This document shows positions 15,511 to 59,486 of a stretch of 64,000 nucleotides of DNA, in pieces. Both the position numbers and the translations under genes were made by a program. The notes below the pieces were generated by a model. It did not search any database. It was not told where the DNA came from and saw nothing but the letters and a program-made list of their open reading frames with translations. The first letter of the stretch is position 1. Each line of letters opens with the position of its first letter. Source of the DNA: Botryllus schlosseri (Eukaryota); assembly GCA_051294905.1 (NCBI GenBank), contig CM119372.1, positions 24,430,001 to 24,494,000 on the forward strand, given 5' to 3'.

Positions 15511-15658
15511 CTTGGAAGTCCCTACTTCTATTTGTACGTGAGTAGAAATTTTGACGTTATATAATTCTGCGCTTCGACTGCAATACAAACGATGACAGTT
15601 TTGACCACCCCTGCCTGTTAGCTATAAGAAATATATCCATATTCCCAGTCGCAGATTA

Positions 15659-17031
15659 CACTCGTCAACAAAATGAAAAACAATTTTGGCAGAATATCTA
15701 AGAGTCGTTTCAGCGAATTTCAATATTGCTGATGATGAATATCACATTAGTATTGTCAGATTGACTCTGTTTTAGGAGATACGCACCCCTAAAAAGCCGA
15801 AATTATTGTATTTACCCCCTCAATATTTAACTTGGTAGGCAGTAAATAGTAGCTTTTTTACCTTTATAAGGGGCATAAATAGATAATTGACTACACGTAA
15901 CCCTCATGTCGTTATTCGATAAATATGAACATGACCTGATGCGAGATCTTTGCTTGTCAAATCAAGGGGTTTGCCAAGCCTAAAAATTGGAATTTTTACA
16001 ACGACAATGCATTTTCCAGTAGCAGTTGGTCATTCTACCACGATGAAAGAGGAATATAAAGCTATAAAATTTCTCCTTGAAAAGCTTAAGTAAAATACTC
16101 GTATGCGTTCCATCTCTTTTGACTTGTAGATGGACAAATTCGTGCTGCGCCAACAAAGTGGGCCTGCATACCTAGTGTCTTCATCAAACGTGAAGCGTAA
16201 AGCTGGTGTCTTTGATGGACCTCGGATATTCGAATACGAATTAAACATTCTAATAAAAAGAGCTTAGTGCATGGACTTCCATCAGGTCAAGGGTATAGGA
16301 AAAAAACTTTTGGACGATAACAAAGAACCCGACTACTAACAGTTGGTCGAAAAATTGGTGTCTGCATATGGAAACCTTGAAGGAAACATGAACACCAAAG
16401 TTCACCTCCTGTCCAGTCATCTTGGTATTTCCTGGTCATGTTGATGTTTAGAGTGACGGGTAAAGGGAAATGTTCCAACAAGACATCAAAAACACGAAAG
16501 AAAGATACCAGGGCAGATGAGATGAACATATTATGGCAGACTACTGCTGGAAACACGTTTAAAGAATACGCTAAATTGCTTACAAGTGAAAATCATATAC
16601 GAAACTATTTTGTTTCAAGATGAACTATTATTATTATATTCCAACTGATTATTCTAAATTTACAATAGGTGGTTGACATAAAACTAATTAAATCATTGCA
16701 ATTTTATTTTATTGTTTAGCTACATATAATTGGAGTTTATTTATGTACATGATATCCGTGAAAGTCTCCAACTAGGGTAAATATAATACCCCTAAATATA
16801 ATGATGTTATTGTATTTTGTTTCAAAACAGTCGCCATCGTATAAAAATACCATATAGATTGAATTCCTGAACTTTATCATACGATTGAGCGGTTTTTTCA
16901 TCAGCCTCATGGGTTATCTCCAGAACAAGAGCCCATTTGAAAAAAGTAAGGCCATATTCGAAATAAGTGCCCTGCAGAACCCCCCCAAACCACTCTTATT
17001 TTGTCTGCCTAAATATATGTGTTGACCAGTG
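15659..17031 (+). mobile_element. Chapaev3-like (CMC) DNA transposon deletion derivative with transposase C-terminal remnant
   Basis: Termini CACTCGTCAAC / GTTGACCAGTG with a TTA TSD. The decayed remnant NMNTKVHLLSSHL...FQQDIK..ERYQGR*DEHIMADYCW lies at about 16260-16560. Confidence 0.78.
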
Positions 17032-17326
17032 TTATGGTTCTCTGACTCCCTAAACTACCACTACCATGCTGCGACTTCAATTTCAAATCTAATGGCCGAT
17101 AACAGGTATACCTTTCAAAGTATGATATCGACTCGATAGTATTAGCGAATGGATGATTCGTTGGACTCAAATTGTAACTATTGATTAGTAGGGTTCAGAT
17201 TTGAAAAAAATGTCGGGAAACTTCGGATCTACCCTCCCAAATGATGGTTTAGCTTTAGTACATAAAACACTTTAACGCTTTTTGTTCATTTTTATTGTGA
17301 TCCCTTCTCCCTTCAACGCCCAAAAG

Positions 17327-20920: not shown

Positions 20921-21179
20921 GAGGTGTGTTGAATATATTCGTTCTAGAAAATACCATTGATATATTTTTATGTCTATTAATGGCACATTTACAGTGGCGA
21001 TTATCGCGTTTTTTAGGCTTTGTGCACCACGACACGAATATTTGTAATGTTCCTATGTCTTTGCCTTTCGTAATCTTGAGCACGTCTTTCACGAATTCTA
21101 CAACTCAGACGTCAGTCACTCTCGCTCCCATGCGCCCCCATCGTGGTCTTCGCTGCCGACTTCGCTGCTCACTTTCAGA

Positions 21180-21766
21180 ATAGAAATTAAACATGGAACG
21201 GCAACGACTGATTTTGCAGCTTCGTTCCGCTTCGCTGAGGCTGAAAGGTAGAATAGTTTTGCGTAAGCGACTGTAGGATTTCGGGCAATCCAAAAGCTAT
21301 CTTCCCGAGCGCAGAAATTACTGGATCTGGTCTTGATCAAAAGCTACTGTTGTACCGATTCCGAAAATATAAATTAAAATATGATCAGGCACTGACCCAC
21401 CTAGAATCCGTTCTCCAAGTCTGAAATATCGGCATTGTTCGAACAATCGGAGAGTCGCAACGGGTCATTGTTATGGCCATTGTGTCGCGGTTACCCGATT
21501 GTTCTGAGCAATGCACATTTCAGATGTTGAGGGTGGTTTTTCGTCAAAGACTGGAGCGTGACCATATTTTCATTCATATTTTTGGAATGAGTGCGACAAT
21601 AGCTTTCGATCAAGACCAGATTCAGTAATTTCTGCGCTCTGGAAGATAACTTTTAGATTGCCAGAAATCCTACAGTCGCTTACGCAAAACAATTCTACAC
21701 TCCAGCCTCAGCGAAGCGGAACGAAGCTGCAAAATCGGTCGTTGCCGTTCCATGTTTAATTTCTAT
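21180..21766. mobile_element. Foldback MITE, palindromic over nearly its whole length
   Basis: ATAGAAATTAAACATGGAACGGCAACG is inverted at the other end. Flanks ACTTTCAGA / ACTTTCAGT look like a 9-bp TSD (8/9). Confidence 0.82.
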
Positions 21767-21798
21767 ACTTTCAGTATTGGCTTTTCAATGCATTACGG

Positions 21799-25354: not shown

Positions 25355-25691
25355 CACTAGTCAATACACATTTTGGTGCCAATAATAATTCCAAGGTTTT
25401 AGGGTATTTTTATGTCGCTGAATCCAAAAATGTCATTTATTGTTCCGAATTGGCTCTATTTTTCGAGATATTCCATATTTTTTCGAAAAGTGCTGAAAAT
25501 ACTCAAATATTGACATTTAGGTAAAATTATCTTTGTATACTACGGTTTAGGTGTATTCTCATGTCGCTAAATCCAAAAATGACAATAGTTTACCGAATTG
25601 GCTCTAGTTTTTGAGATATTCCGTATTGTTGTTCGAAAAGTGCTACAATTCTCTTTATAGGCCAATACGACGACTTCGATGAGTTAACATC
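25355..25691 (-). mobile_element. Probable end of a Chapaev-like transposon interrupted by the palindromic element
   Basis: Starts CACTAGTCAA and has a duplicated subterminal block (about 25411-25495 and 25561-25645). The transposase remnant resumes at about 40900-41130. Confidence 0.45.
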
Positions 25692-25959
25692 AGTAGTAGA
25701 GAAATGGTGGATATAGCCGCATATCGTCTTTTAACTTAAAGAAACTAAAATCTCTAATAAAATAAAGAAACAAAGGATAACGGACTTACGCATTTTGCAG
25801 AATTGCAGTTCGTGACGGATTGCTGCAAGCGATCTGATCGATATGTGGCTGTTTGATTTCCGTTTGAAATGAGTTTGGTGTAATATTTGTGACGTAATTC
25901 TCGCGGTTGTGGCGTGACTCGTTATTTATGAGTGGATTGATCACTGGTTCTGCCTGTTG

Positions 25960-28030
25960 ATTTCAAAACCCGGCTGACCTATCGTGTCGCGCTTTCTGGA
26001 ATTGAGTAAGGTTGCTATCTGCGTGTCAAAACTCGTTTGCGGTGAATATAATTTTATTATCAGGCGAATAATATCAAGGTTATTGTCTTTGTTGTAATCG
26101 AATCTTTCTGGATCTCTATGGTGTGTACTCCGACGAAACGGAAAAGTTGACGCGGCATGACGCGGCGTGTAATCGTGGGTTGGTTCATCCAATTTCTCTT
26201 GAATGTGATGGGATGAGGGAAAATTTGCCCATTGAACATTACAGCTGTGAAGTAAACGCTCCTCTTGATCCGTATATGAGAGCCTTATGCTATATCTCAA
26301 GTGCACGGTCAAGGCGTTGGGCCAAACGAAACGATGTAAATTCACGCTTGCCGTTTGAACTGGCATACTCTGGTCCGGAACGATAACCGTTCAGCTCCGT
26401 ATTAGAGTGATATATATGTATTCTTGGTATCATTTTCAAGGCTACTTGCAGAATTACGTAACTCACTATCGGGGGATGAACGGATTCCGAAACTAGAAAT
26501 GGTCCTGCCTGGCGATTTAAAACTCGGCTGACCTATCATGTCGATCAATGATTTCCGGTTCAATTGAATACGGCTGCTATCTGCGTATAATCAAAACTCG
26601 TTTATGTTAAATTAAACTCGTTTGAATTTATTATCAGGCGAATATACTCAAGGTTACTGTATTATTTGCTGTAATTTTCCGCGTATGACGATCGAATCTT
26701 TTTGGATCTCTGTAGTGTGTAACCCGACGAAACGGAAAAGCTCGCCTGGCGTGACTCGCCGTGTCAGCGTGTAATGGCGGGTTGATTGATTGATGGGTAT
26801 ATGATGACAATTTATGCTATGTTTCAAGCGTACGGTCAAGGTCACACGAATCGATGTAAAGTCTCGCTTGGTTGGATTCTCGTACTTGGATGGGGTGGGG
26901 GGTGGCTGACTAAGGGGCTACACATCCAAAACTACTTCCGTAACCAAATGTCAGTCAGGCGCAGAGACGAGCGGATATAAAAATTTGGTATTCTGAAACC
27001 ATCTTGCTCCGGCTTATATTTTAAAACTCAACTGGCGTATGATTTCTCTTGAATCTCTCAATCAATAATTCCCGGTTCAATCGAGTGTGAATGCAAGCTG
27101 TCTGTGTGGTGCACGCGTTATCAAATCAAACTCGTTTGTGTCATTGAGTCCATGGTAGGCCTATATCACATTGATATCATTGTAAGCAGACAGTTTTGAG
27201 TAACTATGTGGGATTCTATTGAAAACAGCTTTATTACAAAGAAGCCGAGATAAGTCCATCGCTGTTGCTACTTGCTACCCGCCATTTTCAAGTGGTTTTT
27301 GACGACGTCCAAAGCTACTTCCCGCAGCTTACGACAGTAGAGAGCGAGTGTGCCAGGAGCGAGCCTCGTATACGGTACAAACGAGTGTGGATTTGAATGG
27401 GAAAACAAGGCATTGGGGGATCTTTACTGGATTACTTTTGGATTTAAGTTTATTCGGACCCGGATTTGTGGATTTTACATGCTACTCGCGAAATAATATC
27501 GCGGGCAAGTGATCCCCATGAATCAGCCGTGATCGATCGGGGGTGATGCGATGATGTCAGTCTGGATTCAAAATACTCGTTTGGATTAATCACATCAAAG
27601 TAATCAGTTTTCTTCTGGCTCGTGACTCTTGCATCGATGTGGTTCCTGTATCGAGAACTACGATACTAGATTCCATTGTACGCCGACGAATCGGGGCTCG
27701 TATACTGTACAAATGAGCGTGAATTCGGATGGGAGTACGGCGCATTGGAGTATTTTTACTGGATTACTTTTGGATTTACGTATATCCGGACAAGGATTTT
27801 TTAAATTGTACATGCTACTGGCGAAATAATTGCGCTAGTAAGTGATGGCCATAAATCAGCCGTGATCGATCGAGAGTGATACGATGATGTCAGTCGGGGT
27901 TTAAAATACTCATTTCGATTAATTCCATCAACGTAGTCATCTTCTTCTGACTCGTGACTCTTCCGTCGATGTGGTTCCTGTATTGAGAACTATACGATAC
28001 TCGATTCCATTGTACGCTGACGTATCGGAA
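25960..28030 (+). repeat. Diverged subterminal direct repeats in the palindrome arm (mirrored at about 38250-40320)
   Basis: About 25960-26350 resembles 26513-26870, and about 27400-27695 resembles 27740-28030. All four share a TGTA...GACG.A.CGG motif. Confidence 0.75.
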
Positions 28031-28769
28031 AAGTTCGCCTCGTTTCGTAGGATACTGGGGGAAAGGTTTAATCTCGCTGAATACGAGTTTGGGAATATTT
28101 GGCGTTATATTCGAGTGATAAAAAAACTTATCTCTAGGCAAGTAGACGTACTTGCTGAGTGATTGTAGCCTGCGACCCAAATTCCCATTGTCTCTGTCCA
28201 CAATCGCTTGTGAAGTGGTGTAATGAATCGGTGATCCGAATCCAGCCCGGAATTGCTCCTGCTCCTGGACCCGATCGTAATCACCTCCGCTCAGATGTGA
28301 TCAACCTGTTGACGGATATACAGTCTTGTCGTCATCGTTGTATGTTAAGTTGACGGAATAATACTTGATCATAATGAGCAATCTGTAAGATATACATCTC
28401 AGTAGTACCGTGTTTTCTGTTTCACGGTCATACAAATCGGGTGCAGTTCAGATTAGCAAGAAATCGAGCAGTTTCATTTTCCTGGTACTGAGTTGAGACG
28501 CAATAACTACTGGTCAGGCGTAATCATCTTCCATCTACAAAGGATGTTTCATTTTGGTATGGCTGCATATCAATTGTGTATATAAACTTGTATTTCGGCA
28601 GTCGATGAAGAAAATATGTAACCCGTTTGCTAAATATGTATGTTGTCTATTTTAGGAACACGAGAAGTGAAGTACATCAACAGTTTGATGTCAAAGAAAA
28701 TATTATCCATGACGAAGCGTGAATAATGATTTTACCCGCTGCGTGTCGAAATAGCGTATAGCGTATAGC

Positions 28770-29030
28770 GTATAATAGCGTCGATTCCGCAGCTGCAACA
28801 CCAATGGGTTGCGGGTTCGAGTCCGACTGAGTTCGACTGCAGAATTCTTACCCAAGTGTTCGATGTTTATCTAGGCTCCTATTTTTCATATAATCCGTAC
28901 AAGCGATGCCTTCTAGAAGCTCAGAAGTGGGCAGTGCTACAAGTCGGTATCTACAGGACACAAATGACGTAAATCGTCCTGGTTGAAATGACCGTATTAG
29001 CAGTCTACAAGCACCATGAATATCACAAAC
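28770..29030 (+). mobile_element. tRNA-derived SINE inside the palindrome arm (mirror at about 37250-37510)
   Basis: B-box-like GGGTTCGAGTCC. Related copies at about 57200-57440 and 10880-11000. Confidence 0.65.
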
Positions 29031-29420
29031 AACGAAACAAACTCTACCCGCCATGATATCGACTCCAGCAGGACATATTTTCGATATATTGAGATATGTA
29101 AATTTCATTCTTAATATTTTCAATCTTGCAAGCGAACCATCTTTTAGGGCGGCAATAATACAAGATTTGTCGTTATCGACTAACGCTGTCAAGGGCGATT
29201 TGGTGTATGGAAATGTGAATATTGATTACGACGGTGCGATTTTGGACGGTTCGCCGCGGTAAACGATCCTTGATATCAGGAAACAATCAGGCGCAGTCTG
29301 AAAATATAGTCGAACATTCGTACCCTGCTACAATACCAAGCACAAAGCGTTATTGGAAAAAAAAATGCGATGAAGCGGCGATCGATATGCATCGTACAAA
29401 GACGTAGTAGTAGTCACGCA

Positions 29421-29423
<3 letters not shown>

Positions 29424-29467
<44 letters not shown>
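29424..29467 (+). repeat. (CA)n microsatellite (mirror (TG)n at about 36814-36857)
   Basis: Seen directly. Confidence 0.97.
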
Positions 29468-29470
<3 letters not shown>

Positions 29471-30051
29471 AATACTAGTCAGATTATAGGACCACGAACT
29501 AACATATCGATCCAGTTTTCCGTCCCATGCCACCTCATTTTGTCTCTTTCCTTTCATATTCTCTGCTTTAGTTTTCATTCGGTGTGCATTCCTCTTCTTT
29601 ACTTTACCTATGCCAAGGTGGGTGTGCGATTTCAAAGACTACTCCAAGCTCCAATTCGTTTCGACACCTTCCTGTCTTTCATTGTATCGCAGTTTTGTAG
29701 TGTTTTGAAACGATGAAAATATTAATAAACTAACACTGATACACTAAATTATCCCAAGAACAGCTGCAATACAGAAACGTTTGAGGTCTATATATTTGCG
29801 ATTTTTTATTGCGTGTGAAGATTTAAAAACGACTAGCAGAATAGGTAGGAGAAGACTGGAGGAGCAAGCTCTAGCACATAATAGACATTTCGTCCATCAG
29901 TATTGGTGTTTGTAAGGCAGGGCTAGAATCTGTGTAAAATGAGGAAAATTACTATAATATGAATGCGAGGCATTCAATAGCACCCAAGCAGAGTTCTGAA
30001 AAACGTGAGTTGAACTGGATTGGATCCGAAAATGAACAATGCGCAGTGAGC

Positions 30052-30480
30052 ACAATGACTCGGACTCGAGTCTCAACACCGTGATTCGGAGTTGAATATT
30101 CGAATCCTGAGTTGGACTCGGTGGTGAATGGAAAATGATTCGACTTGACTCGAGTCCTACCGAATGTTGGGATTAAGTCACCATCCTCGAGTCACGAATA
30201 GGGCTAGGCACAATGATTCGTGTACCCGAATCTGAAACGAGTAATATATATAACGATTCTAGTCGAGTAGTAAAAGACGATTTTTTTTTTCGAGTACTGA
30301 AAATATACGCTTCTATCGCCACTAAACGGCAATTTATCAACGAAAGTCATAGGTTCGATACTAGTTTCAAGTGTGGAAGCTGTAAAACTTTGATTGGTCG
30401 TATCGCAGCATACGAAACCTACAGACTACAGTACAATGCTACGAAAGTTACTGAAAATAACAAATCGCTGGTATGCCAGC
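30052..30480. mobile_element. Fragments of two host MITE families inside the palindrome arm
   Basis: A GACTCGAGTC-type piece (tgttgggattaagtcacc) and a TAGGGCTAGGCACAATGATTCG piece similar to 54477-55004. Confidence 0.65.
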
Positions 30481-31917
30481 TAGTTTTATGGCTCTACAGC
30501 ATCACCAGATTCTTATGACTCTATATGGCGGGTGTTTTCAACCCGGATCCAATCATCTGGATAGTAAGTAGCCTATACACAAGTAAGTAACTCCGTCGGT
30601 CGGAAGAAGTAGGCGTATCACGCGATATACTTTTTCGTATCATAGATAATGATATCATGCAAATTCTGCACGAGATGTGTCTTGGAAGTGGCACGTAAAA
30701 CGTTGTTGTCCCCCACCAATATAGCTTCTCTAGATGAGATGTCTTATTCGTTTTGCTATCTGACCCGTTTGTGGAAATCTTCAGCGACAATTATTGTTCT
30801 GGGGATCATTTTCGTTGAGTATTAAAATATGGTCTCTCGCAGAGCGTGACGGTCAACAAATGTATGTCTCAAATATTCAGCGGAAACCGGGGTACATTAT
30901 TGTTCGAGACTCCTATATATGACTTGGAATAAAGCACCGATGCCTTGTCATTCAGAGGCTGCTGTATCGAGAGCGTCCATGGCAGTTGATCGAATAATCA
31001 TGTGAGAAGATGGTCAAATATGATTGTCTACCTATCTATTATGAATATTCTATTTCGGAGTGTTTCCTTGTATATCCCCGAGAGTGACGACATAGAGTCG
31101 ACTATTACTGATCTCGCGATGTGAGAATACAACTCGTGAAAAGAAGCTTGTGATCTGTGATGGATTACAGAATATTCCGATGTCAACGCTGACGTTCTTG
31201 AAAATGGTGTGATTCGTTATAGTTCTGATCTTGTGTGACTACCCCAAACAGTAGATTATCGACTATAAAACGTTTGTGTAGCTATAATTCGTATCCAAGT
31301 TGTTGAACTAAGACATATGACGGTAGAATCGAATGCCATACATAAAAACTTATTCAAATACCTACTAAGAGTGAACATTACAACGTTGAGTCACTTGAAA
31401 AGTTGTCGTGGTAGCGGAATATTGTTTGTGAATCGATATGGTTAGTAACAGTTGGATTGTTCGCACATTTAATGCTATTTATCGATATCGGATCGGCTTA
31501 TGAAATATCAGTGTGAGAACCAAGTGCGTGCCAACTGCCCTTTGTTGATGGAAATAAACACCTGTCTCCCGTATTGCTGTCAGAAAACAATCTGTTTTCA
31601 TGAAATACGCATATTTGCACGCCAAGTCCTGCTAATTTTGTTGCCCGTTCGTTTTTGTATTAACATTAAGTGTGTAGTATCGCTCCTTTGGCGATGGTAA
31701 TTTGGCGGAAAAAGTCAGCACCTAAGATTAAAAAAAATCAACCAGAGAACGAGCTGTTTCTCCGTGACCTTTCAATATTCACCTATGGTTTTGAATTCAC
31801 AGCAAATGACGTTATTGTTGACAATATGTGAATTGCTATCGAAGATTCGTAGTAATGGTTTTGTCTGTTTTTAGGATGATATATTTCTCAAACAGTTTCC
31901 AAAAATGAGAGACTGTT

Positions 31918-33000
31918 ATGGGAAGACACTTCGACCCGGATCCGCCAGTACAGAGATGCGTATATATCGCGTCGGGTTCTCACCGCTCCGAATTATATAG
32001 ACTCGCTACGTTCGCCAGGTTTTCGAGACTGTCGTACGCAAAGCGTGCAGATTTAGCATCTGACGGATATTATTGGCTGGGGTTCGAAGACAAAATTAAA
32101 TGTTTCGGATGCAGTATTTCACTCGAAAAATGGGTTGAAAAGGATACGAATGTAAGTTGTCATGAAGCGAGTTGTGTTCGAGACGTATTCAATATTCCCG
32201 TTGAAAGATCGAATTTCAGGAGTCTATTACGGGAGTTTAAGCTCCAAATCGAGACACCGCAAGTCAATAACAGCGACATAAAACTTGCGAATATCATTGA
32301 CCGAGAACACGCGTGTTTGATTAAGAACCTCGACTTGAAAAGGGAATCGAAGCGACGCGAAACCTTCAAGAAATGGCCTAGCTATCCAATACCCCACGCA
32401 GTAGGCGAGTTGGCGAAACAAGGGTTTTTCTATCTCGGTAACTTAGACAGAACGCAGTGCTTTAGCTGCTTCGGTGTTCTTCGCAATTGGAAACCCATAG
32501 ACGACGTATCGGAAATACACCTTACACATTTTCCAAAATGTACTTTCGCACGTGGTAGCTTTTCAGGAAATATCGCACTAGCTGAGCAAGACCGCGGTAA
32601 TTTGGATGACTTACTTCACGAGAAAATACGACGGCTCACTATCAATGTGAAAGAACCAGATGAGCCATCCGAGGATGAAAAACACTATCTTGCTGAACTA
32701 TTCCCTTGCCTTAACCCCGCGAATCCTGTAATGTCGTCCTTGTCACGAAGAATAGCAACCTTCGACGAAGGTTGGGATCCCGCTAAAATCAATGCTAGCG
32801 TTGAGCAATTAGCAAATGCGGGGTTTTATTACATCGATTCGGACAAGACGAAATGTTTTTACTGCAATGGTGGACTTCGGTGGGACCGGACAGACGAGGT
32901 TTGGACGGAACATGCTAAATGGCCAGTTAGAATGTCCCGTCTAATCCAACTGATAGAAATAGAAGTAGTCCAACACAAGGCACTTGAGTATGTAGTGTAA
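31918..33000 (+). CDS. IAP (BIR-domain) protein, truncated copy: BIR1, BIR2, incomplete BIR3 and an unrelated 25-aa tail
   Basis: Same protein as the minus copy up to EHAKW (32922), then reads spacer sequence. It lacks the last zinc-binding Cys of BIR3. Confidence 0.85.
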   Translation: MGRHFDPDPPVQRCVYIASGSHRSELYRLATFARFSRLSYAKRADLASDGYYWLGFEDKIKCFGCSISLEKWVEKDTNVSCHEASCVRDVFNIPVERSNFRSLLREFKLQIETPQVNNSDIKLANIIDREHACLIKNLDLKRESKRRETFKKWPSYPIPHAVGELAKQGFFYLGNLDRTQCFSCFGVLRNWKPIDDVSEIHLTHFPKCTFARGSFSGNIALAEQDRGNLDDLLHEKIRRLTINVKEPDEPSEDEKHYLAELFPCLNPANPVMSSLSRRIATFDEGWDPAKINASVEQLANAGFYYIDSDKTKCFYCNGGLRWDRTDEVWTEHAKWPVRMSRLIQLIEIEVVQHKALEYVV

Positions 33001-33047
33001 TTAGGTAAAACCTACCACAATTCTGAGAAAAAAATAGAAGTACTTCA

Positions 33048-33172
33048 TGACTGCCACCACTGCGTTCTACGTCAGTCCCACAAGTCTAGAAACAATGCAA
33101 AGATGTCCACATGCTATAGTCATATTCATTTATATTTATTTCACATCGTTTACACGTCACGGCCTCTCCCAT
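33048..33172 (-). pseudogene. Frameshifted RING-finger remnant downstream of the IAP ORF
   Basis: Minus-strand frames give MGEAVTCKRCEININE, then MTIACGHLC, then CF*TCGTDVERSGGSH. Confidence 0.65.
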
Positions 33173-34364
33173 TTTCGATGCAATCCAACGGTGATCCATC
33201 GTTTGATTGACGATTCCGCAGAACATTTTGTCGTTTAGTCAACTCCAACTTCGTGATGGGGTTTCTAATAATCGGACGGTTGAGATTTGGATATGTGTTT
33301 TCGATGCGTCGCCCGAATTCGATACCTTTCATACGAAGTACGTACTCGCATTGCGGAAACCATTTAGCATGTTCCGTCCAAACCTCGTCTGTCCGGTCCC
33401 ACCGAAGTCCACCATTGCAGTAAAAACATTTCGTCTTGTCCGAATCGATGTAATAAAACCCCGCATTTGCTAATTGCTCAACGCTAGCATTGATTTTAGC
33501 GGGATCCCAACCTTCGTCGAAGGTTGCTATTCTTCGTGACAAGGACGACATTACAGGATTCGCAGGGTTAAGGCAAGGGAATAGTTCAGCAAGATAGTGT
33601 TTTTCATCCTCGGATGGCTCATCTGGTTCTTTCACATTGATAGTGAGCCGTCGTATTTTCTCGTGAAGTAAGTCATCCAAATTACCGCGGTCTTGCTCAG
33701 CTAGTGCGATATTTCCTGAAAAGCTACCACGTGCGAAAGTACATTTTGGAAAATGTGTAAGGTGTATTTCCGATACGTCGTCTATGGGTTTCCAATTGCG
33801 AAGAACACCGAAGCAGCTAAAGCACTGCGTTCTGTCTAAGTTACCGAGATAGAAAAACCCTTGTTTCGCCAACTCGCCTACTGCGTGGGGTATTGGATAG
33901 CTAGGCCATTTCTTGAAGGTTTCGCGTCGCTTCGATTCCCTTTTCAAGTCGAGGTTCTTAATCAAACACGCGTGTTCTCGGTCAATGATATTCGCAAGTT
34001 TTATGTCGCTGTTATTGACTTGCGGTGTCTCGATTTGGAGCTTAAACTCCCGTAATAGACTCCTGAAATTCGATCTTTCAACGGGAATATTGAATACGTC
34101 TCGAACACAACTCGCTTCATGACAACTTACATTCGTATCCTTTTCAACCCATTTTTCGAGTGAAATACTGCATCCGAAACATTTAATTTTGTCTTCGAAC
34201 CCCAGCCAATAATATCCGTCAGATGCTAAATCTGCACGCTTTGCGTACGACAGTCTCGAAAACCTGGCGAACGTAGCGAGTCTATATAATTCGGAGCGGT
34301 GAGAACCCGACGCGATATATACGCATCTCTGTACTGGCGGATCCGGGTCGAAGTGTCTTCCCAT
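33150..34364 (-). CDS. Inhibitor of apoptosis protein, three BIR domains, intronless, 404 aa, no intact RING
   Basis: BIR1 RLATF..CFGC..H..C; BIR2 RRETF..GFFY..CFSC..H..FPKC; BIR3 RIATF..AGFYY..CFYCNGGL..EHAKWFPQC. Confidence 0.95.
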   Translation of the reverse strand: MGRHFDPDPPVQRCVYIASGSHRSELYRLATFARFSRLSYAKRADLASDGYYWLGFEDKIKCFGCSISLEKWVEKDTNVSCHEASCVRDVFNIPVERSNFRSLLREFKLQIETPQVNNSDIKLANIIDREHACLIKNLDLKRESKRRETFKKWPSYPIPHAVGELAKQGFFYLGNLDRTQCFSCFGVLRNWKPIDDVSEIHLTHFPKCTFARGSFSGNIALAEQDRGNLDDLLHEKIRRLTINVKEPDEPSEDEKHYLAELFPCLNPANPVMSSLSRRIATFDEGWDPAKINASVEQLANAGFYYIDSDKTKCFYCNGGLRWDRTDEVWTEHAKWFPQCEYVLRMKGIEFGRRIENTYPNLNRPIIRNPITKLELTKRQNVLRNRQSNDGSPLDCIENGRGRDV

Positions 34365-36810
34365 AACAGTCTCTCATTTTTGGAAACTGTTTGAGAAATA
34401 TATCATCCTAAAAACAGACAAAACCATTACTACGAATCTTCGATAGCAATTCACATATTGTCAACAATAACGTCATTTGCTGTGAATTCAAAACCATAGG
34501 TGAATATTGAAAGGTCACGGAGAAACAGCTCGTTCTCTGGTTGATTTTTTTTAATCTTAGGTGCTGACTTTTTCCGCCAAATTACCATCGCCAAAGGAGC
34601 GATACTACACACTTAATGTTAATACAAAAACGAACGGGCAACAAAATTAGCAGGACTTGGCGTGCAAATATGCGTATTTCATGAAAACAGATTGTTTTCT
34701 GACAGCAATACGGGAGACAGGTGTTTATTTCCATCAACAAAGGGCAGTTGGCACGCACTTGGTTCTCACACTGATATTTCATAAGCCGATCCGATATCGA
34801 TAAATAGCATTAAATGTGCGAACAATCCAACTGTTACTAACCATATCGATTCACAAACAATATTCCGCTACCACGACAACTTTTCAAGTGACTCAACGTT
34901 GTAATGTTCACTCTTAGTAGGTATTTGAATAAGTTTTTATGTATGGCATTCGATTCTACCGTCATATGTCTTAGTTCAACAACTTGGATACGAATTATAG
35001 CTACACAAACGTTTTATAGTCGATAATCTACTGTTTGGGGTAGTCACACAAGATCAGAACTATAACGAATCACACCATTTTCAAGAACGTCAGCGTTGAC
35101 ATCGGAATATTCTGTAATCCATCACAGATCACAAGCTTCTTTTCACGAGTTGTATTCTCACATCGCGAGATCAGTAATAGTCGACTCTATGTCGTCACTC
35201 TCGGGGATATACAAGGAAACACTCCGAAATAGAATATTCATAATAGATAGGTAGACAATCATATTTGACCATCTTCTCACATGATTATTCGATCAACTGC
35301 CATGGACGCTCTCGATACAGCAGCCTCTGAATGACAAGGCATCGGTGCTTTATTCCAAGTCATATATAGGAGTCTCGAACAATAATGTACCCCGGTTTCC
35401 GCTGAATATTTGAGACATACATTTGTTGACCGTCACGCTCTGCGAGAGACCATATTTTAATACTCAACGAAAATGATCCCCAGAACAATAATTGTCGCTG
35501 AAGATTTCCACAAACGGGTCAGATAGCAAAACGAATAAGACATCTCATCTAGAGAAGCTATATTGGTGGGGGACAACAACGTTTTACGTGCCACTTCCAA
35601 GACACATCTCGTGCAGAATTTGCATGATATCATTATCTATGATACGAAAAAGTATATCGCGTGATACGCCTACTTCTTCCGACCGACGGAGTTACTTACT
35701 TGTGTATAGGCTACTTACTATCCAGATGATTGGATCCGGGTTGAAAACACCCGCCATATAGAGTCATAAGAATCTGGTGATGCTGTAGAGCCATAAAACT
35801 AGCTGGCATACCAGCGATTTGTTATTTTCAGTAACTTTCGTAGCATTGTACTGTAGTCTGTAGGTTTCGTATGCTGCGATACGACCAATCAAAGTTTTAC
35901 AGCTTCCACACTTGAAACTAGTATCGAACCTATGACTTTCGTTGATAAATTGCCGTTTAGTGGCGATAGAAGCGTATATTTTCAGTACTCGAAAAAAAAA
36001 TCGTCTTTTACTACTCGACTAGAATCGTTATATATATTACTCGTTTCAGATTCGGGTACACGAATCATTGTGCCTAGCCCTATTCGTGACTCGAGGATGG
36101 TGACTTAATCCCAACATTCGGTAGGACTCGAGTCAAGTCGAATCATTTTCCATTCACCACCGAGTCCAACTCAGGATTCGAATATTCAACTCCGAATCAC
36201 GGTGTTGAGACTCGAGTCCGAGTCATTGTGCTCACTGCGCATTGTTCATTTTCGGATCCAATCCAGTTCAACTCACGTTTTTCAGAACTCTGCTTGGGTG
36301 CTATTGAATGCCTCGCATTCATATTATAGTAATTTTCCTCATTTTACACAGATTCTAGCCCTGCCTTACAAACACCAATACTGATGGACGAAATGTCTAT
36401 TATGTGCTAGAGCTTGCTCCTCCAGTCTTCTCCTACCTATTCTGCTAGTCGTTTTTAAATCTTCACACGCAATAAAAAATCGCAAATATATAGACCTCAA
36501 ACGTTTCTGTATTGCAGCTGTTCTTGGGATAATTTAGTGTATCAGTGTTAGTTTATTAATATTTTCATCGTTTCAAAACACTACAAAACTGCGATACAAT
36601 GAAAGACAGGAAGGTGTCGAAACGAATTGGAGCTTGGAGTAGTCTTTGAAATCGCACACCCACCTTGGCATAGGTAAAGTAAAGAAGAGGAATGCACACC
36701 GAATGAAAACTAAAGCAGAGAATATGAAAGGAAAGAGACAAAATGAGGTGGCATGGGACGGAAAACTGGATCGATATGTTAGTTCGTGGTCCTATAATCT
36801 GACTAGTATT

Positions 36811-36858
<48 letters not shown>

Positions 36859-39800
36859 GTGCGTGACTACTACTACGTCTTTGTACGATGCATATCGATC
36901 GCCGCTTCATCGCATTTTTTTTCCAATAACGCTTTGTGCTTGGTATTGTAGCAGGGTACGAATGTTCGACTATATTTTCAGACTGCGCCTGATTGTTTCC
37001 TGATATCAAGGATCGTTTACCGCGGCGAACCGTCCAAAATCGCACCGTCGTAATCAATATTCACATTTCCATACACCAAATCGCCCTTGACAGCGTTAGT
37101 CGATAACGACAAATCTTGTATTATTGCCGCCCTAAAAGATGGTTCGCTTGCAAGATTGAAAATATTAAGAATGAAATTTACATATCTCAATATATCGAAA
37201 ATATGTCCTGCTGGAGTCGATATCATGGCGGGTAGAGTTTGTTTCGTTGTTTGTGATATTCATGGTGCTTGTAGACTGCTAATACGGTCATTTCAACCAG
37301 GACGATTTACGTCATTTGTGTCCTGTAGATACCGACTTGTAGCACTGCCCACTTCTGAGCTTCTAGAAGGCATCGCTTGTACGGATTATATGAAAAATAG
37401 GAGCCTAGATAAACATCGAACACTTGGGTAAGAATTCTGCAGTCGAACTCAGTCGGACTCGAACCCGCAACCCATTGGTGTTGCAGCTGCGGAATCGACG
37501 CTATTATACGCTATACGCTATACGCTATTTCGACACGCAGCGGGTAAAATCATTATTCACGCTTCGTCATGGATAATATTTTCTTTGACATCAAACTGTT
37601 GATGTACTTCACTTCTCGTGTTCCTAAAATAGACAACATACATATTTAGCAAACGGGTTACATATTTTCTTCATCGACTGCCGAAATACAAGTTTATATA
37701 CACAATTGATATGCAGCCATACCAAAATGAAACATCCTTTGTAGATGGAAGATGATTACGCCTGACCAGTAGTTATTGCGTCTCAACTCAGTACCAGGAA
37801 AATGAAACTGCTCGATTTCTTGCTAATCTGAACTGCACCCGATTTGTATGACCGTGAAACAGAAAACACGGTACTACTGAGATGTATATCTTACAGATTG
37901 CTCATTATGATCAAGTATTATTCCGTCAACTTAACATACAACGATGACGACAAGACTGTATATCCGTCAACAGGTTGATCACATCTGAGCGGAGGTGATT
38001 ACGATCGGGTCCAGGAGCAGGAGCAATTCCGGGCTGGATTCGGATCACCGATTCATTACACCACTTCACAAGCGATTGTGGACAGAGACAATGGGAATTT
38101 GGGTCGCAGGCTACAATCACTCAGCAAGTACGTCTACTTGCCTAGAGATAAGTTTTTTTATCACTCGAATATAACGCCAAATATTCCCAAACTCGTATTC
38201 AGCGAGATTAAACCTTTCCCCCAGTATCCTACGAAACGAGGCGAACTTTTCCGATACGTCAGCGTACAATGGAATCGAGTATCGTATAGTTCTCAATACA
38301 GGAACCACATCGACGGAAGAGTCACGAGTCAGAAGAAGATGACTACGTTGATGGAATTAATCGAAATGAGTATTTTAAACCCCGACTGACATCATCGTAT
38401 CACTCTCGATCGATCACGGCTGATTTATGGCCATCACTTACTAGCGCAATTATTTCGCCAGTAGCATGTACAATTTAAAAAATCCTTGTCCGGATATACG
38501 TAAATCCAAAAGTAATCCAGTAAAAATACTCCAATGCGCCGTACTCCCATCCGAATTCACGCTCATTTGTACAGTATACGAGCCCCGATTCGTCGGCGTA
38601 CAATGGAATCTAGTATCGTAGTTCTCGATACAGGAACCACATCGATGCAAGAGTCACGAGCCAGAAGAAAACTGATTACTTTGATGTGATTAATCCAAAC
38701 GAGTATTTTGAATCCAGACTGACATCATCGCATCACCCCCGATCGATCACGGCTGATTCATGGGGATCACTTGCCCGCGATATTATTTCGCGAGTAGCAT
38801 GTAAAATCCACAAATCCGGGTCCGAATAAACTTAAATCCAAAAGTAATCCAGTAAAGATCCCCCAATGCCTTGTTTTCCCATTCAAATCCACACTCGTTT
38901 GTACCGTATACGAGGCTCGCTCCTGGCACACTCGCTCTCTACTGTCGTAAGCTGCGGGAAGTAGCTTTGGACGTCGTCAAAAACCACTTGAAAATGGCGG
39001 GTAGCAAGTAGCAACAGCGATGGACTTATCTCGGCTTCTTTGTAATAAAGCTGTTTTCAATAGAATCCCACATAGTTACTCAAAACTGTCTGCTTACAAT
39101 GATATCAATGTGATATAGGCCTACCATGGACTCAATGACACAAACGAGTTTGATTTGATAACGCGTGCACCACACAGACAGCTTGCATTCACACTCGATT
39201 GAACCGGGAATTATTGATTGAGAGATTCAAGAGAAATCATACGCCAGTTGAGTTTTAAAATATAAGCCGGAGCAAGATGGTTTCAGAATACCAAATTTTT
39301 ATATCCGCTCGTCTCTGCGCCTGACTGACATTTGGTTACGGAAGTAGTTTTGGATGTGTAGCCCCTTAGTCAGCCACCCCCCACCCCATCCAAGTACGAG
39401 AATCCAACCAAGCGAGACTTTACATCGATTCGTGTGACCTTGACCGTACGCTTGAAACATAGCATAAATTGTCATCATATACCCATCAATCAATCAACCC
39501 GCCATTACACGCTGACACGGCGAGTCACGCCAGGCGAGCTTTTCCGTTTCGTCGGGTTACACACTACAGAGATCCAAAAAGATTCGATCGTCATACGCGG
39601 AAAATTACAGCAAATAATACAGTAACCTTGAGTATATTCGCCTGATAATAAATTCAAACGAGTTTAATTTAACATAAACGAGTTTTGATTATACGCAGAT
39701 AGCAGCCGTATTCAATTGAACCGGAAATCATTGATCGACATGATAGGTCAGCCGAGTTTTAAATCGCCAGGCAGGACCATTTCTAGTTTCGGAATCCGTT

Positions 39801-40587
39801 CATCCCCCGATAGTGAGTTACGTAATTCTGCAAGTAGCCTTGAAAATGATACCAAGAATACATATATATCACTCTAATACGGAGCTGAACGGTTATCGTT
39901 CCGGACCAGAGTATGCCAGTTCAAACGGCAAGCGTGAATTTACATCGTTTCGTTTGGCCCAACGCCTTGACCGTGCACTTGAGATATAGCATAAGGCTCT
40001 CATATACGGATCAAGAGGAGCGTTTACTTCACAGCTGTAATGTTCAATGGGCAAATTTTCCCTCATCCCATCACATTCAAGAGAAATTGGATGAACCAAC
40101 CCACGATTACACGCCGCGTCATGCCGCGTCAACTTTTCCGTTTCGTCGGAGTACACACCATAGAGATCCAGAAAGATTCGATTACAACAAAGACAATAAC
40201 CTTGATATTATTCGCCTGATAATAAAATTATATTCACCGCAAACGAGTTTTGACACGCAGATAGCAACCTTACTCAATTCCAGAAAGCGCGACACGATAG
40301 GTCAGCCGGGTTTTGAAATCAACAGGCAGAACCAGTGATCAATCCACTCATAAATAACGAGTCACGCCACAACCGCGAGAATTACGTCACAAATATTACA
40401 CCAAACTCATTTCAAACGGAAATCAAACAGCCACATATCGATCAGATCGCTTGCAGCAATCCGTCACGAACTGCAATTCTGCAAAATGCGTAAGTCCGTT
40501 ATCCTTTGTTTCTTTATTTTATTAGAGATTTTAGTTTCTTTAAGTTAAAAGACGATATGCGGCTATATCCACCATTTCTCTACTACT
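33360..40587 (-). repeat. Right arm (7228 bp) of the giant inverted repeat
   Basis: Differences I saw: three 1-nt homopolymer indels and one substitution (C32718 vs A33564). Confidence 0.97.
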
Positions 40588-40899
40588 AACATCTGTCTTT
40601 TCAAGTGTGTGCATGCAGTATTCTTCATTTCTTGATGCGATTTCGTTAAAGACGCAATCGTTAACACAGAGAGCCATACGCGAATCCTGTTTCATGTGTA
40701 AATCAAGCAAAAATTATAAAAATTAGGCGATATCAGCATTAAACAACTAATTTTTGTACTGCAAAAACAGGAGACGTCAAAGCACAAACACTAATTTTAG
40801 TAACACTCAAAGTTCATTTAGTAAGCTGCCGAAACAGGCTGATTAATCATATACCTGTACTGTAATAAAATAATTAATCATTGTTTATAAATTTTCTTT

Positions 40900-43471: not shown

Positions 43472-43891
43472 TAGTGGGGCGGTTCAGCCCAAATATTCAG
43501 AAGGATTGTGCATTTTGTGATACAAGCACCAAATTTGGCACACATGTATATTAACATGTTGCGAACATTTTCAGATATTGAGCCACTCGGAATTCTCTCT
43601 TTATGTCCGCCATATTGGATTTCAAAATGGCCGCCATTTGAAATCTACATTTGCGATTATCTCTGGGCCTAATGCTGCTAAAATGAAGTCAATAGTAGCA
43701 TTTGACCCAGACATAATCGCAAATGTAGATTTCAAATGGCGGCCATTTTGAAATCCAATATGGCGGACATAAAGAGAGAATTCTGAGTGGCTCAATATCT
43801 GAAAATGTTCGCAACATGTTAATATACATGTGTGCCAAATTTGGTGCTTGTGTCACAAAATGCACAATAGGTTTGCTATGCTGCCCCACTA
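43472..43891. mobile_element. Hairpin MITE in the last intron of the MINPP1-like gene
   Basis: TAGTGGGGC / GCCCCACTA ends. Inverted arms at about 43505-43685 and 43692-43867. Confidence 0.85.
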
Positions 43892-57440: not shown

Positions 57441-57781
57441 GATTACTGGACGCAACTGCTCTTTCGCTATCTGCCATGCCTCGCGATAATGTCGATAAAG
57501 GCTCGGGCACTTAGGCATGTCACCGCGCTATTTTATGCTATATTGCTATAGTTTAACCAGCGGCGTTGGTCAATTTTTTGTGTTCTCAAGATCCGTGATG
57601 AACATCATTTCATTCTTGAAGCTATCTGGTGCTCAAGGTAATAACTTTTTTCCCACGAACAGCCATTGCCGACGTGGGAATGGATCAATTTTGCAGTATT
57701 TTTGTACACGCGATCTTGTGTTTGCGCCGTCCCGATGCTGCATTATTTTACATTAGGTAGCCTAATTTGTCGTAATGATAA

Positions 57782-59210
57782 CACTGGTCAACACATATTT
57801 TTAGGCAGACAAAGTAAGAGTGGTTTTGGGGGTTCTGAAGGGCACTGATTACGAATATGAACTTAGTTTTTCAAGTTGGCTCTTGTTGTGGAGACAACCC
57901 ATGGGGCTATTTTGACCAAAATCCCCCATTTTCGCAGAAATGACTAGATATAAAATCGGCTTAGTCGTACTATAAAGTTTAGAAATTCTATCTACTTGTT
58001 ATTTTTACACACAGAAGACTCTTTTAAATCAAAATACAGCAACAGCACTATATTTAGGGGTAGTAGATTGATCAAAGTTACAGACTTCCACGGATATCAT
58101 GTACATAAATAAACCCCAGCCTTGTACATAGGTATTTACCTTGATAACCAAATAACGTGGCATTAATTCAATCAGTTTTACGTCAACCACCTATTGTAAA
58201 TTTGAAATAATCAGTTGGAATATAATATTATTGATATATTTTAAATCACAATTGTTTTTTGTACGATTTTCGCCTGTAAGCTATTCAGTGCAGTTTCTCG
58301 AAAGGTTCCGTCAATGGTATGACATAATATGCTCAGTTGTTCATCTCATCTGCCCTGATATCTTTCTTTTATTGTTCTGATGTCTTGGTAGAACCTCTAC
58401 CCTTACTAAACAACAAGGAAATCAGGAAATATATCAAGATGACTGAGCAGGAAGTGAACTTTTATGCTCATGTTTGTGCTCAAGTTTTCGATATACAGAT
58501 ACGAATTTTCGGACCAACTGTTTGTAGTTGGGTGCTTTGTGTTCATGTAAAAGGTTATATTTACTACATGTTAGGATAAATTACATGCAGTGAACTCCTT
58601 GCTAATGTGAAATTGGAATCTTTCATCGGTATTCGAATATACCAGATACCAGATTTAAGCTTCTCGTTTGATAGGGTTACTAGGTATACCCACTTTGTTG
58701 ACTCAGCGGAAAATTATCCATTTACCAGTCAAAAGAAATGAGACGCATATGATTATTGTGGTTAAGCCTTTCAAGGACAAATATTACAGCTTTATACTCC
58801 TCTTTTATCTTGGTAGAATGACCAATAGATACAGGAGAATATGTATTTCCGTTGTGCAAAAGTACTATTTTTAGGCTTGACTAACTGCTGTTTTTGACAA
58901 ACAAATATTTTGCATCATGTCATGTCAATATTGATAGAATGACTGAGAATGACGTGAGGGTTCTTCATAGTCAATTATATATTTCTGCGCAGTATAAAAT
59001 TTAAAAAAAACTACGATTTTCTTCCTACCAAGCGAAATATTTAAGGGTAAATACAGTAATTTTAGGCTTTTTAGGGGTATAAATATCTTCTGATATAGAG
59101 CCAATCTGACAAAACTAATGTGATATTCGTAATCAGCAACCTCAAAAACCCCAGAAACGGCTCTCAGATGGTGTGCCTAAAAATATTTTTTTTCATTTTG
59201 TTGGCCAGTG
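57782..59210 (-). mobile_element. Chapaev3-like element, inverted copy of 15659-17031
   Basis: Termini CACTGGTCAACA / TGTTGGCCAGTG with a TAA TSD. Transposase remnant at about 58320-58560. Confidence 0.8.
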
Positions 59211-59486
59211 TAATCAGCGGTTCGGGTATTTTCATCGCTGAAGATACACAATGCAAAGTAAATATCATTAGACGTAGAATGGTTTGATAAAGATATGTTG
59301 GAGTGCTAGTTAACAGAAAGTCATCTGCTATCCTGCATGCCTTTTTCTAATCACAGATCCACGGTGATTGAGAATGTGAAAAAAGGCGCAGGCTTATAAA
59401 TAATGATTGTGTATATGACAACCCAACTGCGAATAAATAGCAGTGCTTGCATTGATGAACATATCAAGAAAGCACACATTCCATAC

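Follow-up and report, generated by a model that had tools for sequence, protein, structure and literature searches.

Asymmetric centre of a palindromic element with Maverick-type ends in Botryllus schlosseri and its possible derivation from a perfect palindrome

The stretch of Botryllus schlosseri DNA analysed here (the window; 64,000 nucleotides, assembly GCA_051294905.1, contig CM119372.1, positions 24,430,001 to 24,494,000 of the forward strand) contained a palindromic element of 14,896 bp at 25692-40587, whose centre is the junction under study. The left arm (25692..32922, plus strand, 7,231 bp) started with an (AGT)2 end motif and the right arm (33360..40587, minus strand) ended with (ACT)2; both outer ends of the element started with AGTAGTAG. 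Flanking it was the target site duplication AACATC, exactly 6 bp long in its left copy (25686..25691, plus strand) and repeated on the right (40588..40593, plus strand). The alignment of arm against arm extended over 7,231 bp at 99.945% identity, with one substitution, which was silent and located at 32718, 204 bp from the junction, and three 1-bp indels, all in simple repeats.

The element possessed traits of the Maverick/Polinton group, namely an end motif of the type (AGT)2//(ACT)2 or (AG)3//(CT)3, a perfect 6-bp target site duplication, and terminal inverted repeats. Ends of the form 5'-(AGT)2//(ACT)2-3' with a perfect 6-bp duplication are given as the vertebrate type in a passage of PMC8097293, and IAP homologues, to which the only recognisable gene here belongs (see below), are listed among the accessory genes of adintoviruses in part of PMC8502044. 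Unlike in Maverick/Polinton elements, however, the inverted repeats measured 7.2 kb apiece, so that 97% of the element was one inverted repeat, and none of the Maverick core genes (protein-primed polymerase, integrase, ATPase, protease, capsid) was detected in the arm by Pfam search: all 21 of the 21 non-IAP stop-to-stop pieces of at least 70 aa were without a match at threshold, in a search by Pfam only, which decayed or shorter remnants could escape. No second copy of the element end was found elsewhere in the 64-kb window, and contigs at 85-100% identity in three public sequencing runs represented several variants of the element sequence. The best explanation is a presumably helper-dependent and probably multi-copy palindrome with Maverick ends, in which the core genes of an autonomous Maverick went undetected.

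Each arm also contained a 333-bp tandem duplication of approximately 82% identity (27360-28028, mirrored at 38251-38919), and a 45-bp subterminal repeat (87%) was present within the arm at 25945-25989 and 26500-26543. The arm pieces 30194-30465 and 28786-29032 were 71-79% identical to dispersed repeats at other places in the window, indicating that the arms took up or donated host repeats. Other features of the window were a 407-aa frame with RNase H and zf-RVT matches at 29-1252, probably the end of a non-LTR retrotransposon; two small fold-back elements, at 43505-43868 (176-bp arms, 97%, 12-nt gap) and 21177-21769 (214-bp arms, 90%); and an inverted pair of 1.4 kb, 15650-17035 and 57778-59219, sharing 72% identity at a distance of 41 kb.

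The sole recognisable gene of the element encoded an IAP with three BIR domains (PF00653, 3 stretches, E 1.8e-50 by Pfam). The right reading frame (33150..34364, minus strand, 404 aa), with three BIR domains, ran from the right arm into the spacer, whereas the left one (31918..33000, plus strand, 360 aa) was cut at W335 within BIR3 and continued with 25 junction-derived residues. The IAP part of the left copy ended at residue 335 of a Pfam domain spanning 278-342, and the last cysteine, which we take to be the fourth zinc ligand of BIR domains, was lost. The natural continuation of the gene, designated S0 (32948..33359, minus strand, 412 bp, single copy here), consisted of the end of BIR3, a linker, a decayed RING remnant and the 3' flank. 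The RING-like remnant (33037..33149, minus strand) was out of frame and interrupted by stops, and was recognised by a weak tblastn match (E 0.002-0.012) in 4 of 22 homologues; no Pfam RING match, and hence no intact C-terminal RING, was found in the 404-aa product. An AATAAA at 33135..33140 (minus strand), a candidate poly(A) signal of the right copy by motif match, was missing behind the left copy. Since the minus-strand frame completed BIR3 in S0 and 20 of the 22 homologues aligned straight over the boundary 33360|33359, the right junction is natural and the left junction is new.

The nearest proteins were ascidian IAPs, the top one being 45% identical, from Styela clava. Two BIR-plus-RING proteins labelled Endozoicomonas (P0012 and P0096) shared 36% and 32% identity with the IAP over about 90% of its length, a label that reflects either host-to-symbiont transfer or contamination. 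Neither IAP product was found in a collection of 15 billion proteins, and protein-guided scans returned distant IAPs alone (27-47% identical; 4 loci in one scan and 18 in another). Mavericks are unmentioned in the searched passages of a 2026 survey of animal IAPs (PMC13159474).

A spacer of 437 nt separated the inner ends of the two arms, which lay at 32922 and 33360. A preliminary description had reported a 7/8 palindrome at the junction 32922|32923 and near-identical 8-mers on both sides of the spacer in gene orientation. Both readings were borne out, with 7 of 8 positions pairing as stated; by itself such a match is weak and common, being reached at 51 of 63,982 centres in the window. The pairing extended further than had been noticed, to 20 of 25 positions (32898-32922 with 32923-32947), which was the best among 63,948 zero-loop centres in the window (runner-up 18; binomial P 1.6e-8). 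Beyond the 8 bases originally flagged, 13 of 17 positions matched (P 1.4e-5), and the cumulative pairing score reached its maximum at 32947; at the opposite junction, 33359|33360, 0 of the first 20 positions paired. The junction is confirmed as real in this assembly and is stronger than first reported.

The two halves of this quasi-palindrome were designated X and X'. X (32898..32922, plus strand), the final 25 bp of the arm, codes for the conserved end of BIR3, and X' (32923..32947, minus strand) is a 25-bp decayed copy matching it at 20 of 25 positions. The differences fall at codon positions 2, 2, 2, 1 and 3 and include a stop; since X is conserved coding sequence, this pattern suggests that X' is the copy and decayed without coding constraint. 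These differences also speak against X' being a fragment of some paralogous BIR maintained by selection, and that reading was rejected. A chance match was likewise rejected, as a 20/25 match anywhere in the arm was obtained with 9 of 1,500 control 25-mers and a position next to the junction would be far less likely by chance. No support was obtained for X as a site-specific recombination site, X being conserved BIR coding sequence, and the even spacing of the mismatches, as from selection against pairing, was not significant (P 0.06). A weak 8-bp hairpin is possible at the S0/X' boundary (32930-32955, minus strand, -2.9 kcal/mol). No Rfam match was found in 32800-33500, and an exact 22-mer from the centre had 0 matches in metagenome and viral contigs.

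Parts of the stretch were contained in 20 of 24 listed public sequencing runs, the highest share being 0.68 of its words. Four runs were compared with 30400-33385, and the evidence taken from them covers 24 of the 331 pieces, together with 20 of the 67 loose ends. In contig 5 of run X1 the arm led into S0 unbroken, the window arms being about 99.4% like this contig, and in runs X2 and X17 the turn from arm to S0 was seen in each as a loose end at 32922. Among the 24 of 331 pieces listed, none from X1, X2 or X17 spanned the window-type junction 32922|32923. The ratio of spacer to arm depth was 0.88 in X1, 0.87 in X2 and 0.92 in X17 (ranges 0.65-1.38, from few hand-picked values of summed contig depth, which is not copy number); window-type copies would give 0.5, and single-armed or non-palindromic copies also fit a value near 1. 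The ratios of about 0.9 in three runs suggest that most related copies have longer arms than the window copy, probably with S0 in both arms. The asymmetry of the spacer first proposed is likewise supported, and the spacer is the gene's own continuation. In X1, the bin 32900-32999 had a depth of 11.5, nearly all of it from another contig, contig 7, which leaves no room for a window-type contig; thus the window form looks rare, as a derivative would.

These runs also bear on variation among the copies. The letters at 32073, 32079, 32146 and 32667 were identical in both window arms and differed from all contigs of X1, X2 and X17, which suggests that the arms change together. Loose ends of X2 at 32981 and 33015, with a consensus agreement of just 0.61-0.71 over 30 letters, hint at diverged relatives. 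No RNA data set was on record among the listed runs containing the sequence. From the RNA run X23, 47 of 22.2 million reads were recovered, nearly all sense to the IAP gene and mostly 90-99% alike, indicating low-level transcription of related copies.

The only continuation seen past 32923 came from contig 7 of X1 (253 nt, depth 14.4), which agreed with 32923-33156 apart from one differing letter and one gap. Before 32923 it carried 20 extra letters: 6 bases were new, and the other 14 were reverse-complementary to 32948-32961, a 14-mer unique within the window. The X1 allele is an inverted repeat round a 31-nt loop made up of X' and the 6 bases. The start of its repeat coincides exactly with the point at which the resemblance to X stops (32947|32948). 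As contig 7 ends after 14 paired bases, the arms of this allele are presumed, rather than seen, to be long. A 5-base word found at both the S0 end and the spacer start may have guided the short-loop allele.

The X1 allele modifies the earlier model, in which a perfect-palindrome ancestor lost 437 bp between the two 8-mers. Inspection of a related copy past 32923, a comparison that the preliminary description had proposed, showed a sequence with 6 other bases and a 31-nt loop that turns back at 32948, and not the perfect palindrome predicted; the perfect form is plausible solely as an intermediate that was not seen. The repeat by which a deletion would be guided is real, longer than first claimed at 25 bp, and also present in the X1 allele. 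Relative to the X1 allele, on the other hand, the window shows a one-sided loss of 418 bp (412 bp of one arm and 6 loop bases, assuming long X1 arms) with one end in the loop, and no microhomology was found at its break points; for a direct repeat to lie at both break points (20/25, the 3 bases at the tip being exact), the precursor must have been the unseen perfect form. X', a 25-bp remnant, also needs an origin of its own, which the earlier model did not provide. The finding of a related copy with a differently built middle indicates repeated breakage and rejoining at the centre of the element, by repair known from other palindromes.

The reading to which we give most weight, with a probability of roughly 0.4, is that the window holds a centre-deleted copy that arose from a short-loop form by way of a perfect centre and slippage on the 25-bp repeat. 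The starting point would be the state that one contig shows and that is suggested for most copies, in which both arms include S0 and X' lies in a short loop. Breakage in the loop and head-to-head resealing would make the centre perfect, with its axis where X' ends. When this form was copied, the growing strand ending in X would slip onto the complement of X', 437 bp ahead, pairing over 25 bp at 80%, and the slippage would remove S0 and X' from one arm, leaving the window junction. The wider loop would increase the stability of the palindrome, but the left IAP copy would be truncated within BIR3 as a price; one-sided centre deletion as a route to stable palindromes, which had been invoked from the start, is documented in passages of PMC8701086. 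The path is that of the preliminary description, except that the repeat measures 25 bp rather than 8 bp and the perfect centre is transient. This state, itself unseen, would lie one step from the window form and one step from the loop allele, and short-read contigs would presumably reveal it poorly; slippage requires it, because only the perfect-centre form sets X and X' so that slippage gives the junction. In favour of this path are the in-register 20/25 pairing, the spacer as continuation of the gene, the X1 fold-back, the depth ratios and the rarity of the window form. Against it, two steps are needed, X' must predate it through a separate copying event, the perfect centre is unobserved, and the one continuation seen differs.

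The direction of change might also have been the opposite, with the junction old and the symmetric forms derived, a possibility that we regard as real but doubtful. The arm end X would have folded back, or been sealed as a hairpin and opened, copied 25 of its own bases and joined the end at 32948, so that X' would be a decayed inverted insertion; symmetric and short-loop forms would have followed through hairpin breakage and copying of S0 into the short arm. A single event would then account for X' as a discrete unit, in register with X and ending where the X1 inverted repeat begins, the five differences between X and X' ignore codon position as neutral decay would, and yeast provides documented cases of templated inverted insertions at breaks, about 5-34 bp in size (passages of PMC11724301). 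However, with X' 20% diverged and the arms so like contig 5, such a junction should be old and widespread, and no listed piece of X1, X2 or X17 spans it; moreover, in the documented insertions the two copies remain separated by a loop (41 nt), whereas here the loop is zero or extra bases are needed. The slippage path explains better why the window type went unseen in other animals though X' is old.

One-step end joining, that is, a centre break in the 31-nt-loop form with 418 bp lost on one side and a blunt join, requires only the allele actually seen, and asymmetric AAV snap-back genomes have been put down to it (part of bioRxiv 10.1101/2020.10.20.346957). It is nevertheless unlikely, as the break points are without microhomology and both would be in register only by chance. 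The 25-bp pairing would have to be a coincidence, though a 20/25 match is already scarce anywhere in the arm (9 of 1,500 controls) and far rarer in register, or else cutting was guided at the top of an alternative X:X' stem, which at -8.8 kcal/mol must compete with a perfect stem of several kb. It is improbable, too, that a long palindrome was misread, or amplified with a template slip beside the centre. That neither protein occurs in the 15-billion collection and that no independent contig or read among those listed spans the junction would fit an artefact, and palindromes can disturb nanopore reads and PCR according to a passage of PMC8701086; yet the arms differ at four places, one of them 204 bp from the junction, showing that they were resolved separately, the clean join falls in register with a repeat that is real, and, with at best 0.68 of the words in any run, the source animal may not be among those listed. 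Very improbable is a single classic fold-back, in which a short inverted repeat 437 bp apart primed the duplication, the spacer was the original loop, and no longer palindrome ever existed. Inverted duplications that have a spacer usually originate in this way (PMC3907307), and the spacer is indeed parental sequence, but the parent past 32923 should be complementary to the arm end, and the X1 contig, which may not be the true parent, matches at 4 of 20 positions; X' would also stay unexplained, being a direct and not an inverted repeat in the parent's orientation. On this comparison of sequences the single fold-back appears largely refuted, unless the X1 allele is itself derived.

Several known systems resemble the element in part. 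The 15.4-kb transgene palindrome of mouse (Akgun 1997, Cunningham 2003), stabilised by one-sided centre deletions as a passage of PMC8701086 relates, shares the long near-perfect arms, the one-sided loss at the centre and the expected gain in stability. It differs in that the carrier here is a natural, probably multi-copy mobile element with two centre states in different animals, a decayed 25-bp repeat marks the junction, and the perfect state is unobserved. With AAV snap-back genomes, as portrayed in passages of bioRxiv 10.1101/2020.10.20.346957, the element shares the presumed character of a helper-dependent, self-complementary derivative of one genome end and the coexistence of symmetric and looped forms, although AAV is a single-stranded, hairpin-primed virus and the element is integrated, 15 kb long and presumed to be protein-primed. 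A 25-bp inverted copy beside its template fits the 5-34 bp class of short fold-back insertions (as given in part of PMC11724301), and the 31-nt-loop allele looks like the centre of a fold-back inverted duplication (as described in part of PMC3907307), whereas the window junction has no recognisable loop or priming microhomology and its copy is 20% decayed. Palindromes with shorter spacers and more similar arms are less stable, according to part of PMC7999016. Asymmetric inverted junctions are described in Aspergillus in a passage of bioRxiv 10.1101/2025.01.14.632981; in the text consulted of a phi29 review, template switching is treated in a single passage and palindromes are not treated. No description of an almost wholly palindromic non-autonomous Maverick was found in the open-licence literature searched. 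By analogy, the element may work like a snap-back satellite with Maverick ends. The mechanism of the junction is of a known kind and of ordinary chemistry, and it is the carrier and setting that are unusual.

A more speculative and improbable reading is that the centre of this Maverick satellite cycles between perfect, short-loop and long-loop states via the 25-bp repeat, and that in the long-loop state the left IAP copy is read into the antisense of the right copy, making the element a source of double-stranded RNA. The left copy would have lost its own end signal, and with an anti-apoptosis cargo such RNA might, by analogy and with equally low probability, damp the element-borne IAP family; some AAV snap-back genomes make double-stranded RNA, and a damping effect of this kind has been proposed for the AAV 5' forms (passages of bioRxiv 10.1101/2020.10.20.346957). 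Against this reading, a plus-strand AATAAA at 33452 could leave a stem of only some 100 bp, and the RNA reads of X23, 47 in number, were almost all sense to the gene and came from related copies. Most of what is known on the origin and survival of giant palindromes comes from engineered constructs and from breakpoints in patients. If copies of a multi-copy element differ in their centres, they would form a series provided by nature, and a tree of them could reveal in which order snap-back, centre break and slippage occurred; such a series would also test the idea that self-complementary satellites are spun off by Maverick-type replication.
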